Source: an uncultured Chlamydiae bacterium
Lineage (GTDB): Bacteria; Chlamydiota; Chlamydiia; Chlamydiales; SM23-39
Assembly: GCA_963828125.1 (NCBI GenBank)
Contig: CAWHDP010000002.1
Location: 896,001-960,000 of the forward strand
DNA length: 64,000 nucleotides
Reading direction: 5' to 3'
In this document: positions 54,039-64,000 of the stretch, piece by piece
How positions within the stretch are numbered: position 1 is the first letter of the stretch
Layout: every line of letters begins with the position of its first letter
The notes under the pieces: model-generated
Told to the model about the DNA's origin: nothing
The model's input: only the letters and a program-made list of their open reading frames with translations
The model's database searches: none
Position numbers and translations under genes: made by a program

Positions 54039-54078
54039 AAATTCAGATTAAACCAAATCAAATAACACTAAGAATACC

Positions 54079-54116
54079 AAGGACTTAAAGGGGAACCGAT
54101 AAGTCCTTTTTCTTTT
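54079..54116 (+). terminator. Intrinsic terminator after ssrA
   Basis: AAGGACTTA-12 nt-TAAGTCCTT followed by TTTCTTTT. Confidence 0.55.
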
Positions 54117-54205
54117 CATCTAGGCCACTTTTGCCCAGTCTAGTGCGTAAAATTTGCGTAATTTAAACAGAGGGACTAGCCTAGTCTGGCCAATAGACAA
54201 AAACC

Positions 54206-55585
54206 GGTTCATCCGACAAATGCGTACCTGGATTCGTGTAGGTGATAAAGTCGCAATTTAAAATATTCAATATCTCGAAACCCATAAGCCTGCCTTTTCA
54301 TTGTCTTGATTTTGTTGTTTATGCCTTCTGCTGCGGCGTTCGAGATTCGATGTTTGAAATAGTTCAATAACCCCGTCTTGTATTGGTGTAATGTTTTGAC
54401 CACTCGTCTTAGCGGTTTGAGCCCTGTTGCCAAAGCATCGACTCCCCATCTGACGAGAAAATGTTCCGCCTCCTCTACAGAGTCTTTCTCCCAGAAAAGT
54501 TGGAATTGCTCCTTCAGGGAATGTGCCAAAAACAAGGGTTCATTTACAGCCAATAAGGCGCCCAATCGTGTTTGGTTTTCTAGATCCAAGTTGTCATAAT
54601 TCGTTAGGAATAAAAACCGACTGCCCTTCAGTACTTTTGCATCGGCCCCACTCAAGTTTTGCTGTTGATCTTTGCGCACCTCGTCCAGGGCTTTATTCAA
54701 TAAAGCCGTCACATGAAAATGATCAAATACCACATCTACGTTCGGCAAAAACTCTTGTGCTGCTGGGTAGTACGATTTGCTCATGTCCATAGCGATTGCT
54801 TTTAACTTTGGTGCGTGCTTTGCCAGTTTCTTGAAAAAGGGAGCTACCGCCTCTATAGTTCTACCCTCTACAGCGTGAATAATTCTCCCCGACCGTAGAT
54901 CTGTGAAAACGGTCATGTATTCATGCCCTTTCCGTATGCTGAATTCATCGACGGTAATGTATTCCAAATCTTCTAGAGGAATTGTTTTATAGAGAGCAGT
55001 CAATTTCTCTTTGTGGATCCTCTTCACGACATTCCAGCTAATTTTTAGAAATCGAGAGACATCCAAGAGAGTGCTAAAATGCAAAAGATCCAGCACGTGT
55101 GCTATCATGGAGCGCACCATTCGGAATTTGCCTTTCATAAAAGGCAATCGAGGCCACCATTTATGGCCACATTGAGGACAGGCTACTCGATGTAGCAGCA
55201 CGTTTAGAAAACAGGGCTTGCCGCCAAACGGCACCATTTTAAACTGCCGCTTTTTTTGTCCCTTGAAGATTGTGCGCGTACAGCCACATTTGCATTGAGA
55301 TGGATCGACCATTATAGCGTGGATCGTAATCGCCCCCGCTTCAAATTTGGTAGATTGGTATTGAACTCCGCTGATTCCGTATGCATGATACAAGAGAGAA
55401 GTAGACATAGAAGAAGCCTCCCGTGAGGGTGTTTGTTCAAGCTCCTTTTATATGTCTGCTTCTTTTGTTTCTACCCGCCAGTCAAGACCTTCTAGAAATC
55501 ACAACGCGCTGAATAATCAATACTTATAAAAATCTAAGGACTTAATGCCTTTCCCCTCTACAGGTACTCATTTGTCGGATGAACC
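54206..55585 (-). mobile_element. Complete ISL3-family insertion sequence (1380 bp)
   Basis: 25-bp terminal IRs GGTTCATCCGACAAATG(C/A)GTACCTG with one mismatch; 8-bp target duplication CAAAAACC at 54198-54205 and 55586-55593. Confidence 0.95.
54209..55408 (-). CDS. ISL3 family transposase
   Basis: Zinc finger (CKCG...CPQCG), VDEFSIRKGH.Y, AMDMS, FDHFHV and SNAAAEGINNKIK..KR.AYGFR motifs. Confidence 0.95.
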   Translation of the reverse strand: MSTSLLYHAYGISGVQYQSTKFEAGAITIHAIMVDPSQCKCGCTRTIFKGQKKRQFKMVPFGGKPCFLNVLLHRVACPQCGHKWWPRLPFMKGKFRMVRSMIAHVLDLLHFSTLLDVSRFLKISWNVVKRIHKEKLTALYKTIPLEDLEYITVDEFSIRKGHEYMTVFTDLRSGRIIHAVEGRTIEAVAPFFKKLAKHAPKLKAIAMDMSKSYYPAAQEFLPNVDVVFDHFHVTALLNKALDEVRKDQQQNLSGADAKVLKGSRFLFLTNYDNLDLENQTRLGALLAVNEPLFLAHSLKEQFQLFWEKDSVEEAEHFLVRWGVDALATGLKPLRRVVKTLHQYKTGLLNYFKHRISNAAAEGINNKIKTMKRQAYGFRDIEYFKLRLYHLHESRYAFVG

Positions 55586-55660
55586 CAAAAACCTCATTTA
55601 CCTCTAGAATTTGATCTTTAAAAATCGTTGCCACGTCATTTTCTATTTAGGAGTCTACTG

Positions 55661-61396: not shown

Positions 61397-61655
61397 CTTC
61401 TACCTCCTTTATGGGCATATTGGTTGTAGGTTGAGAAAGACGAGCTAAGCAGGAATCCCATGCGACCTGATCTATGAGAACTCGCCTATTGTATCTAAGA
61501 ATTGCAGGAGCAAACGGGCTTTGGTCCCCTTGTTGAATGATGGCACGTACCGCATGCTCGCTAGCGGGCCAAGCTCCTGTTTCGCGATTCTTTTGGCAGA
61601 ATTCGCGCACTGTGCGAACAATTTTTTCTAAAGAGGGTCGAATTGAACAATCCAT
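61338..61655 (-). CDS. Excisionase/AlpA-like winged-helix DNA-binding protein
   Basis: TVREF...WPASEHAVRAII...AILRYNRRVLID...W pattern; lies between integrase and replication genes. Confidence 0.65.
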   Translation of the reverse strand: MDCSIRPSLEKIVRTVREFCQKNRETGAWPASEHAVRAIIQQGDQSPFAPAILRYNRRVLIDQVAWDSCLARLSQPTTNMPIKEVEDAKETSRKIKTQTNRAQHS

Positions 61656-61851
61656 AATAAATCCTGTAGGTTTATAGTTACGGAAGATTAGCCGCCTAAC
61701 GCCCTTGCTTTTTAGGGCACATCAGTTAGGCATAACTTATCTTCTCTAACCCACATTAGATCAGATAGATAGGATTTAACTAAGACGTCCGAATTTAACG
61801 GACAAATAGACGACCTTTTTCATGGAGAAAAAGAATCCAAAAAAAGAGAGC

Positions 61852-62973
61852 TTACTTTGAAACCGCCGACTCTTTTTTTCCTCTTTTTGGCTTCCAACCA
61901 TGTTTTTTAGCAAAAAGGGTGCATGCTTTATTGATTAAGGTTTCGCTACATGCTTCAACTAGTCCATGACCACTAGATTGTTGTGCCTCCTTCCAAATAA
62001 TGGGGCGCAATGAATCATAGGTGTATTTATTCCTCTCTTTTGCAGGCAGCGGCAATAACTTCTTCTCCAAGACACCCTTAATGAGTTGTCTGGCTTCCTC
62101 TTTCATAGCTCTAGGTCCTTTCGGCTTAATTCCAACGGCTCGTTGACGCAAAAGCAAAATGATCTCCTTGAGCAATCGCTCTACCAATTGGATTAGGACT
62201 TTCGGCTGAAAAAAATCCATTTTTCGATCGGGGCCATAATGACTTGCAAATGAAAAATCTGAAGCCAACCGACACCGCAAAGCATTCCTAAAATTTTGAT
62301 CTGCCTCGATCCACATCGCCACTCCACTCCCATTAGCCCGTGGCCAACCGATGTTAAGAATGTCATTCCGAATCGTCCAGCACTCTTCAAATACCCTTAA
62401 TTGTCTCCAGATATGGCGAGGATTAGCATCAATACTGATAGCCATTTCCCCTTGGCTACTTGCCTGGATGACTCTATATGCGGACGGAGCAAAAGTGATC
62501 TCCCATGTCTTAGAAATGGCCAAAACATAAAGCGATTGGAGTTTGTGATAAATCCTATGACATGGGGGTTGGGCTCTTGGAATTTTCACAGTAGATAGCT
62601 TGCCGTTAGCATCCCTATGAAAACCCTCGCAGTCTCTGTCGGATATATTTGAACAACTCCCCTCTTGACAAACCTCCTCAAGAATTTCTTTTGCGCCTTC
62701 AACCCAGCAGGGATTGATGTTGTTCCCATGCAGAATCTGTTGGCATGCAGTATCGAGTTCGGTATACGCACGAACAAGTAGGCTGCCATCACAATTTTTT
62801 TGATCCCATTCATCAATGAGTTTGCTTGTCAGGGGATGATCCTGAAACATAGGAATTATCCGCGTTGCAATTCTTTCACAGATTCCAAGCTTTGTAGAGC
62901 ACTCTAAAAGCAATGTCATCTCCGCCTGAAATTTTTTTTCGAGATCATCAATTACTGATTTATTTGGATTCAT
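61852..62973 (-). CDS. Hypothetical protein (373 aa) overlapping the integrase stop
   Basis: Clean ORF with basic helical C-terminus; no recognised family. Confidence 0.65.
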   Translation of the reverse strand: MNPNKSVIDDLEKKFQAEMTLLLECSTKLGICERIATRIIPMFQDHPLTSKLIDEWDQKNCDGSLLVRAYTELDTACQQILHGNNINPCWVEGAKEILEEVCQEGSCSNISDRDCEGFHRDANGKLSTVKIPRAQPPCHRIYHKLQSLYVLAISKTWEITFAPSAYRVIQASSQGEMAISIDANPRHIWRQLRVFEECWTIRNDILNIGWPRANGSGVAMWIEADQNFRNALRCRLASDFSFASHYGPDRKMDFFQPKVLIQLVERLLKEIILLLRQRAVGIKPKGPRAMKEEARQLIKGVLEKKLLPLPAKERNKYTYDSLRPIIWKEAQQSSGHGLVEACSETLINKACTLFAKKHGWKPKRGKKESAVSK

Positions 62974-64000
62974 TGATAACCCCTAACAAACTTGCCTGAG
63001 TTCTCTCCATCACATTTGCTATGTGCTTTTGACTATAATGAGCATACCGCCTGGTCATTGTGGGTGTTTTGTGACCGAGAATAGCCATTAACTCCCCCTG
63101 AGTTGCACCACTCATCGCTAAAAAGGATGCTGCAGCATGCCGAAGATCATGAAATCGAAAATTTGGAACTTTTGCCCTTTGGAGAGCTTTTACAAAAGCA
63201 TTCCGAATATCTACCAATCCCGATCGATTAGTGGGACTCGTTGGCTTGAAAATCAGACCAGACGCAATATCAGTTTTTTGCCAACTCAACAAAATCTTCT
63301 CTACCGCTTCAGTTAAAGGAAGAATCCTCCTTTCTCCATTCTTCGTTTTCTCTAGAGTGATAGTCCGATGCTGGCGATCGATATCTTCCCATTTCAACCC
63401 AACAATTTCACCGAACCGCATGCCAGTCAAAAGCGCTAGAGAAACGATGGGAAAAAGATGAGGATTAGGGGAAATCTTGCATTCCTGCAAAAGACGATCT
63501 TTCTCCTCTAGACTCAGAAGTCGATTCCTTCCATTTCCTTCAGATGGCTTTGAGACTTTTCTCATAGGGGTATCATCAATCCATCCCCACTCTTTCATCG
63601 CAATAGTCAAAGCTCTGGAAAAAGCGGCCAGATATCGATTGACCGTTGCTGGATTCCGTAATTTTTGCCGAATCGTTGCTTCTGCAAGCAAGACATCTCT
63701 TGCTTCAGCAATGACAGCAGGAGTTAAATCTGCTAGTAGTAGATAGCCAAGTCTTTCTTTCCACCAAGCTAGATAAGCTGTTTGCCTGACTACCCTATGA
63801 GGAAACTGTGACAACCATTGAGTAGTAAATCGATCTATTAAATCTTTGACTGTGTGCTTTTTTGCTTCGGCAATGCGAACGTGGCGACCATCTCGAATGG
63901 CAGACTCTGTGTCTTGAATCCATTTCTTTGCCAATGTCCTTGTACGAAAGGATTCTCTTTGAGGAGGATAACCTTTTAGGCGAACCTCAGCGTGATAGGT
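62960..64000 (-). CDS. Tyrosine recombinase / phage-type integrase (N-terminus outside window)
   Basis: Frame is open from 64000 (TYHAEVRLKG..). Catalytic set TGMR, TKNG, HDLRH, LGHK and RRYAH. Confidence 0.95.
   Translation of the reverse strand, partial: TYHAEVRLKGYPPQRESFRTRTLAKKWIQDTESAIRDGRHVRIAEAKKHTVKDLIDRFTTQWLSQFPHRVVRQTAYLAWWKERLGYLLLADLTPAVIAEARDVLLAEATIRQKLRNPATVNRYLAAFSRALTIAMKEWGWIDDTPMRKVSKPSEGNGRNRLLSLEEKDRLLQECKISPNPHLFPIVSLALLTGMRFGEIVGLKWEDIDRQHRTITLEKTKNGERRILPLTEAVEKILLSWQKTDIASGLIFKPTSPTNRSGLVDIRNAFVKALQRAKVPNFRFHDLRHAAASFLAMSGATQGELMAILGHKTPTMTRRYAHYSQKHIANVMERTQASLLGVINESK

Follow-up and report, generated by a model that had tools for sequence, protein, structure and literature searches.

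We analyzed a 64,000-nucleotide stretch of the genome of an uncultured Chlamydiae bacterium, in which an integrative element adjoins the transfer-messenger RNA (tmRNA) gene ssrA. This stretch, called the window here, covers positions 896001 to 960000 of contig C2 of a 2.37-Mb, two-contig genome (G000); coordinates above 64000 are window-equivalents. The best explanation that we can offer, which may just as well be right as wrong, is that the region is a copy, integrated at ssrA and by now likely stranded, of a horizontally spreading island whose likely way of life is that of a phage satellite of environmental chlamydiae, of the type of the Staphylococcus aureus pathogenicity islands (SaPIs) and of PICIs (phage-inducible chromosomal islands). 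The element works most like such a satellite, with a link to packaging that we infer. Because its small terminase subunit (TerS) and its regulator are unproven, it is not filed as a PICI.

As judged from sequence comparison, the element is a horizontally moving integrative island, because its 6.1-kb backbone shares 88.8% nucleotide identity with an element in a genome of another family (G132) and 88.1% with one in another genus (G117), both at ssrA, where the neighboring ileS proteins are only 65% and 72% identical, respectively. A search of 401 phylum genomes detected the helicase gene in 11, none of them among the seven of the same genus. This patchy distribution is the opposite of the vertical conservation that an initial annotation of this DNA had named as contrary evidence, and the same gene set was indeed present at ssrA in other Chlamydiota. 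Five of 18 helicase-bearing loci have an adjoining tmRNA gene and an integrase gene (int) at the far end that points towards it. In three relatives (L056, 10.7 kb; L058, 10.0 kb; L059, 12.8 kb), a 20-bp segment from the ssrA 3' end recurs in direct orientation and closes the element, and L060 and L062 are closed by tRNA-Tyr repeats starting at the anticodon loop. The cargo varies at both element ends and includes a peptidase, GNAT, an AbiEii pair, Fic, a YhcG nuclease and MFS, among others. By their titles, nine of the 18 closest relatives are chlamydial, two belong to Verrucomicrobiae and four are named "bacterium" only; the remaining three, which are distant, come from other taxa.

Directly after ssrA the GC content drops from 0.515 (1-53600) to 0.426 (54039-64211), in keeping with the AT-rich turn described initially. 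Open reading frame (ORF) and profile calls likewise bore out a single minus-strand run of integrase, 373-aa ORF (ORF373), xis-like gene, 53-aa ORF, helicase, iteron cluster, 212-aa ORF (ORF212) and HGGxSTG gene, followed by cargo, but the gene list near ssrA had overlooked an ISL3 insertion (Table 1). The label "xis-like" holds by position only. In the comparison with the alpA, merR and stl regulators, a single one of 18 proteins from this slot touched HTH_17, weakly (E = 0.06); the slot protein is conserved and had no match among solved structures. No primase is encoded in this element, and none of 11 genes from the ORF373 slot matched PADLOC defense models. As had been noted at the outset, capsid, tail, relaxase and conjugation genes were not visible: capsid, tail, portal, relaxase and type IV secretion system (T4SS) families had no match among the 11 window ORFs scanned or among 19 ORFs of the next 30 kb, a set that leaves out a 2818-aa Rhs-like ORF.

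The helicase was modeled with a mean predicted local distance difference test (pLDDT) score of 82 and a predicted template modeling (pTM) score of 0.59. Its best Foldseek matches were Cch of the staphylococcal cassette chromosome SCCmec (5dgk, E = 7.8e-10) and SaPIbov1 Rep (8tch, E = 4.8e-8); by sequence there was neither a Pfam match nor a solved relative, and the placement comes from the fold search alone. Behind the helicase gene, six copies of GGTAGC or GCTACC lie within 243 nt, where the genome expectation is 0.05, and none of 1000 dinucleotide shuffles reached six copies of any hexamer. Close relatives keep this pattern, with GGTAAC variants. Distant homologues of the helicase are fused to Toprim or RepB primases, and a primase is present in several relatives. 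According to an excerpt of PMC9371898, SaPI Rep proteins are self-loading initiator-helicases that bind 6 to 12 iterons just downstream of rep. The model suggests that the element likely replicates itself from its helicase and iteron origin. The PICI- or P4-type layout proposed earlier was thus supported in its SaPI-type replicon, by fold and iterons, but not in its P4 part, since none of the P4 markers psu, delta, sid and the alpha primase-helicase was detected in the element by Pfam, PHROG or NCBIfam profiles.

The same architecture recurs widely. The ORF212 profile matched 88 of 400 phylum genomes, and the ORF212 family amounts to 4901 clusters at 50% identity. In a nonrandom sample of 20 ORF212 loci, taken on long contigs from profile matches, 18 have a co-oriented integrase gene no more than 10 kb upstream, and 19 have an HGG-like ORF by a loose pattern, at least 12 of them clear by BLAST among those displayed. 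The order in this family is integrase, variable gene, xis-like gene, a swappable replicase, ORF212 and HGGxSTG, with two cargo slots. The replicase slot holds at least five types (DUF5906, DUF3987, DUF927, AAA_25 and NrS-1-like), with or without a primase and once with PolA, and integration targets include the genes for tRNA-Met, -Ser, -Phe, -Leu, -Asn and -Thr. PICIs, as outlined in part of PMC10085698, have the core order integrase, regulator, primase-replicase and terS, and their accessory genes follow either int or terS. Because the family gene order equals this core order, we liken the island to PICIs. Our literature search returned no description of this island family, although supplements may list individual members.

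Several side observations belong to the family. Loci L114 and L115 encode, besides a DUF3987 primase-helicase, a DNA polymerase of family A, and L114 lies at tRNA-Phe. The genome studied here has 19 paralogous tyrosine integrase loci on both contigs (for example at C2 1092494, 1341977 and 564241 and at C1 263437 and 276753). Many follow immediately on a tRNA gene or on a duplicated 3' part of one. Several stand at the front of elements built in this same way, in some of which genes that by eye are DUF5681-like or HTH genes take the slot after the replicase.

With SaPIs and PICIs of type B, which have no capsid gene, the island shares an integrase, an accessory gene, a gene in the slot of the small regulator, a replicase, an inverted-iteron origin, a gene in the terS slot and cargo, all within about 10 kb. 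It also shares with them the lack of structural and lysis genes, a helicase whose nearest folds are those of SaPIbov1 Rep and Cch, and, in the three relatives closed by ssrA repeats but not in this copy, an integrase with a direct-repeat chromosomal attachment (att) site. It differs in having no TerS, AlpA/Stl or primase recognizable by profile, in carrying the ORF212 and HGGxSTG pair instead, and in the common orientation of all its backbone genes. The string "Chlamydi" does not occur in the main text of SatelliteFinder. Unlike capsid-forming PICIs, the island has no capsid, portal or head-tail genes of its own. The PICMIs (phage-inducible chromosomal minimalist islands) of Vibrionaceae resemble it in a compact integrase gene, an int-overlapping variable gene (by position), a gene in the alpA slot, a small ORF and a replicase, and DUF3987 and DUF5906 replicases occur among the members of the island family. 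PICMIs insert at fis, however, rather than at ssrA or tRNA genes, and the island has in addition a conserved pair and an iteron origin. The Cch module of SCCmec provides the best structural match of the helicase (5dgk), at a sequence identity of only 12%, but SCC elements use large serine recombinases, whereas the island has a tyrosine integrase. Among islands at the same target, the Pseudomonas tmRNA islands I23, I44 and I55 are alike in the tmRNA 3' target, direct repeats, a tyrosine integrase and the lack of transfer genes; they differ in that int lies next to the tmRNA gene, and the excerpt of PMC12595487 reports no SaPI-type replicon or terS-slot pair. The islands of Protochlamydia naegleriophila, as far as the excerpt of PMC5010888 goes, are tRNA-adjacent or integrase bearing and 5 to 37 kb long, one with a putative terminase large subunit, but the description treats each by itself and defines no family around a conserved backbone; some may be members. 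An integrative and conjugative element or a relaxase-encoding integrative mobilizable element would differ in having a relaxase, coupling protein or T4SS, of which there was none in the element or in the scanned ORFs of the next 30 kb.

The slot that in PICIs holds terS is occupied here by ORF212 and HGGxSTG. We consider it roughly an even matter whether these two form a split TerS-like module, as the models and matches suggest, with ORF212 as the oligomerizing half and HGGxSTG as the DNA recognition half. HGGxSTG matched genes in 22 phage records, and in the four that were examined it lies in gene 1 or 2 of the record: the gene is annotated as "putative terminase small subunit" as gene 1 of Bacillus phage 268TH004, is the first coding sequence after the pac site of phage Flasso and is annotated as hypothetical in the others. 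It also had weak matches to PHROG terS (E = 0.002). ORF212 has a predicted anatomy of helices, a long hairpin (112-169) and two C-terminal strands. Its four-copy model scored 0.75, compared to 0.00 for the best control, with a contact agreement of at least 90% and a partner pLDDT of at least 75; of 30 solved pairs, 20 attained the mark for this oligomer score, as did 1 of 23 single chains, counts that are only roughly applicable here. One copy touches two neighbors by different faces, so that a side-by-side self-association is predicted. Fusions of ORF212 to HGG were seen in 2 of 267 proteins examined, and the two genes are adjacent on four alphaproteobacterial plasmid loci. We also considered whether ORF212 and HGGxSTG might be joined by a programmed -1 frameshift, and rejected this for the present copy because a stop codon interrupts the -1 frame five codons ahead of the HGG start. 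No paper mentioning HGGxSTG was found in our literature search.

On a Microvirga plasmid (L221), the pair ends an operon at 8841-24605 that comprises a MerR-like gene, a primase, a helicase, a DNA ejection protein (phrog_4287, E = 6e-14) and two very large ORFs. There was no capsid or large terminase gene among the 15 ORFs scanned, and the region is a possible satellite-plasmid.

A number of results weigh against the satellite reading or its packaging part. ORF212 matched nothing in Pfam, in PHROGs, among INPHARED phages or among solved chains, was not found in phages, and its profile did not align to four phage HGG gene 1 proteins. For its fold, Foldseek gave nothing at E < 0.1 in PDB and BFVD; VIA returned mostly generic 60-residue hairpins (Z < 10), with TerS chains not among the matches listed. 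The domain order of the pair, the oligomerizing part first and the DNA-binding part second, is the reverse of the canonical TerS order. On the alphaproteobacterial plasmids with the pair, no terminase or capsid gene is annotated nearby, and the intact ssrA relative L056 is missing both genes by tblastn. The element ORFs include no capsid morphogenesis or capsid size gene, a gene that is optional in PICIs. Three scans of IMG/VR for this clade detected no relatives of the element. The circular attP that the initial annotation suggested looking for did not appear among nine metagenome matches, of which five were attL and four tandem junctions, or in viral contigs. Contigs of four metagenome runs, which drop rare forms, had no circle joint either, and read depth was even over element and flank in the run that is the probable source. 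Finally, this copy has no direct repeat of the ssrA 3' end, by exact and fuzzy search (up to 5 mismatches, 50-112 kb window-equivalent).

The last point concerns the ends of this copy. The attL core recurs over 20 to 21 bp at the far end of relatives' elements, and 54039-54165 is conserved in relatives of other families. The sole other genome copy of the ssrA 20-mer is inverted and about 30 kb away, apart from one chance match with five mismatches. The expected far-side repeat is present in L056, L058 and L059, but this copy has only the inverted one. The element end lies between 64.2 and 65.2 kb, with the far arm and core gone, because similarity to the relatives stops at about 64210 and, from about 65240, the sequence is that found directly after ssrA in the same-genus genomes G371 and G406. 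A contig of metagenome run X4 joins the ssrA end to 65238. ISL3, present in five near-identical full copies genome-wide including the one here, is absent from the same site of the G132 element. Since the direct end repeat is absent and ISL3 is present, this copy is probably stranded and not excisable as a unit, the far core having been lost and ISL3 having entered.

Upstream of int lies a second pair of arm motifs with a pseudo-core (Table 1), which seems to mimic the target. A pseudo-core is present in 23 of the 24 elements of the integrase clade with a known target, L059 being without a 7-nt pseudo-core. Its outer four bases equal the element's own target stem at 79 of 92 positions in the 23 elements (permutation mean, 53; 0/20000) and at 43 of 52 in the tRNA-targeting elements alone (mean, 32; 17/20000), in tests that ignore kinship among the elements, a point that tells against this correspondence as does the poor fit of L160 (0/4) and L145 (1/4). 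Examples are GGGA/TCCC at tRNA-Tyr and CGGA/TCCG at tRNA-Met. In 26 elements, a sigma-70-type promoter starts 2 to 5 nt after the pseudo-core, with a mean match of 8.0/12 compared to 5.9 in shuffles (0/2000); taken alone, the region studied here had a promoter match no better than chance (1 versus 0.7). A similar arrangement is known from KplE1 intS, in one of the STI-shaped tRNA islands, where, in the excerpt of PMC2951348, arm and core sites of Int overlap the int promoter and Int represses itself through these att sites. There, however, a real attL lies over the promoter, whereas here it is a separate arm pair and a pseudo-core with a nonmatching 7-nt spacer. By analogy, we infer that the detached att-like copy keeps int repressed when cargo or inversion parts int from the true att site: repression would survive cargo insertion and a flip of the element because the arm pair and pseudo-core travel with int. 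No description of a detached target-mimicking int operator was found in our literature search.

In the integrase tree, the five elements with far-end int form one clade (100/99) inside the ssrA clade (99/100); in the remaining five elements of the latter, int lies behind ssrA and is directed away from it. Given this nesting, int probably changed its orientation a single time. G132 shows an attR half fused, precisely at the overlap, to the left half of a pseudo-core from another element, a single case that would fit the deletion of an older backbone by Int with its cargo left behind. An integron-like reading of the pseudo-core was rejected: regular cassette capture is unsupported because the spacer differs between elements and only one hybrid junction was seen in all loci examined and in this genome.

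Candidate helpers do exist in the phylum. The initial statement that a helper in Chlamydiota is unknown proved too strong, as genes for tailed-phage terminase, portal, protease and major head protein are present in Chlamydiota, the family of this genome included. The large terminase subunit (TerL) family PF03237 was found in 30 and the portal family PF06381 in 13 of 381 phylum genomes. G179 has genes for TerL, portal and protease as well as for head morphogenesis, major head and neck; TerL, portal and protease genes are also present in G088, which belongs to this genome's family; and G149 has another portal and head type. A tailed-prophage type recurs at G179:C3 at about 81-95 kb (L201) and at G088:C6 40-55 kb (L215), in the order ParB-methylase, 162-aa small ORF, TerL (phrog_979), accessory slot, portal, head morphogenesis, protease, major head and neck. 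On this sequence evidence, the chlamydial tailed prophages are candidate helpers. In the genome studied here, only a remnant of methylase, small ORF and TerL at C2 1652238-1655422 was found, and PF04860, PF05065, PF03354 and PF06381 were negative. The isolated chlamydial phages named in one paper are Chlamydiamicrovirus, and no paper combining the terms of our subject was found on chlamydial prophages.

If the satellite reading is correct, the element could work as follows. In the integrated state, Int bound to the arm pair and the pseudo-core beside the -35 box would keep int repressed. Upon induction by a helper, the xis-like protein would permit excision, and the Cch/Rep-like helicase would load itself on the iterons and replicate the circular form, using a primase of the host or helper. 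Rings of ORF212 together with the HGGxSTG domain would then act as a two-part small terminase that passes the DNA to the TerL of a tailed chlamydial phage, and Int would insert the element again at the T-loop of ssrA in the next cell. With the far att core and arm lost and ISL3 entered, the copy in this genome could probably not leave as a unit. A bolder version, which we regard as possible but lean against, posits a phylum-wide, undescribed satellite family (its marker being in about one-fifth of the genomes) with a split and permuted small terminase that uses the heads of undescribed tailed chlamydial prophages. Its target-mimicking int operator would coevolve with the insertion site and occasionally recombine to drop the backbone and leave cargo at ssrA.

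An alternative that we hold to be unlikely is a minimal satellite or hitchhiker, which excises and replicates upon phage infection and is packaged passively, with ORF212 and HGGxSTG serving phage interference, regulation or a toxin-antitoxin function. The essentials of PICMIs are int, an int-overlapping gene, alpA and primase, and these islands are packaged without capsid genes (PMC10803314, excerpt); ORF373 overlaps int here, too. Likewise, a jumbo phage transduces tmRNA islands that lack transfer genes (PMC12595487, excerpt), L056 is intact without the pair, and on plasmids the pair lies beside toxin-antitoxin genes. This alternative leaves aside, however, that the pair occupies one fixed slot after many replicase types, which is the terS slot, and that HGGxSTG is a gene 1 domain in phages.

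We think it quite improbable that the island is an integrative mobilizable element, conjugated in trans via an oriT by F-type systems of chlamydial plasmids or islands. Near-identical copies occur across family borders, and such spread is wider than most phage host ranges. Cch moreover comes from SCCmec, a different kind of island, and F-type transfer systems exist in Protochlamydia, Simkania and Rubidus (PMC5010888, excerpt). Yet the element has no relaxase, and three models (TrwC, coupling protein and TraG/VirB4-type ATPase) detected no conjugation gene in this 95%-complete genome, in which oriT was not searched for; the phage-type links of HGGxSTG would also be left unexplained.

Little credence goes to an autonomous, plasmid-like integrative element that can do without a specific helper and is passed on through vesicles or DNA uptake in shared eukaryotic hosts. 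It would fit the island's own initiator and origin, the lack of a demonstrated helper link and the 19 paralogous integrase loci, which suggest frequent arrival, but there is no partition or primase gene, no free circle was found and the conservation of ORF212 with HGGxSTG would go unexplained. A prophage remnant with deleted late genes is largely refuted and hardly credible: the helicase does resemble the C-terminal halves of phage primase-helicases (23-29% identity) and decayed prophage pieces lie elsewhere in the genome, but relatives of 10 to 13 kb are closed by direct repeats around the same compact gene set, no structural family occurs among their scanned genes and no TerL, portal, capsid or tail gene inside the att ends, and the commonest chlamydial terminase operons examined have a different, 162-aa small gene before TerL.

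Table 1. Features of the ssrA-adjoining element and its surroundings (positions above 64000 lie beyond the window)
Feature	Position	Strand	Basis or remark
tmRNA gene (ssrA), integration target	53671-54038	+	ARAGORN
attL core: GAGA / 7-nt T-loop overlap (54018-54024) / TCTC, then ssrA 3' end	54014-54038	+	
Tandem arm-type motif, TGCGTAA x2	54144-54161	+	105 nt past core; arm role suggested by position
ISL3 insertion, 399-aa transposase, 8-bp target duplication	54206-55585	-	Profile and sequence comparison
Cargo, GH130-like (weak match, below cutoff)	55628-56683	+	79% aa counterpart in G132 element
Cargo, HAD hydrolase	56733-57422	-	Profile match
Cargo, HIT-family protein	57427-57942	-	Profile match
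HGGxSTG protein, 80 aa	58014-58256	-	NF041373, above cutoff
ORF212, 212 aa, unnamed family	58253-58891	-	ORF call, model
Putative origin, six GGTAGC iterons in both orientations, AT-rich stretches	58892-59134		Directly downstream of helicase
Initiator-helicase, 678 aa from ATG, no primase domain	59135-61171	-	Cch/SaPI Rep fold
Small conserved ORF, 53 aa	61235-61396	-	ORF call, relatives compared
105-aa ORF in xis/AlpA-like slot	61338-61655	-	Position; family slot proteins 66-117 aa
ORF373, 373 aa, 14-nt overlap with int end	61852-62973	-	Unrelated genes fill slot in close relatives
Tyrosine integrase, 360 aa, start 42 nt past window end	62960-64042	-	PF00589
int promoter	-10 at 64072-64067, -35 at 64095-64090	-	Promoter-like score
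Pseudo-core, GAGA-N7-TCTC	64100-64114		Same half-sites as ssrA T-loop flanks, different spacer
Second arm pair, upstream of int	64175-64192		Pseudo-core 60 nt further on
NYN gene	64307-65113		PADLOC HEC-09 candidate defense model match
Start of second ssrA island type	about 65238-65360		Sequence comparison
Inverted attR-type site	83985-84125		ssrA 20-mer at 83985-84004, arm motif 103 nt before

Beyond the window, 65240-93200 is a decayed array of further ssrA islands and insertion sequences, partly inverted. It contains a RhuM fragment, the 2818-aa Rhs-like protein (with paralogues elsewhere in the genome), a sulfatase, two genes of the Legionella-OMP type, DDE_Tnp_1 and IS66 elements, an HTH-IrrE gene and a fragment of a group II intron. 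At 88640-88700 there is a degenerate, inverted core that has a terminator-like hairpin. A third type of ssrA-targeting island (L129, L130, L131 and L132; here 88679-88700) has a different junction upstream of the core and is stacked in tandem with the studied element in four of the nine metagenome matches. At about 93 kb, the array ends at a homologue of the gene directly behind ssrA in G319; this homologue (93271-94416) weakly matches peptidase C58 (YopT-type). Dozens of near-identical copies of a palindromic repeat, about 48 to 130 bp long, are spread over both contigs (e.g., at 79040-79170 and 82020-82075).

Gene exchange of obligate intracellular environmental chlamydiae across families is poorly explained, and the island family provides a concrete vehicle for it. 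If phage shells are borrowed, this would be a so far undescribed route of gene exchange for intracellular bacteria. The reading has testable parts, namely, a helicase that loads itself, together with its defined origin, and an operator of the integrase modeled on the target, and it offers a possible function for the large, unnamed ORF212 family and for the HGGxSTG domain. The replicon and the ssrA-specific integrase could become genetic tools for environmental chlamydiae.

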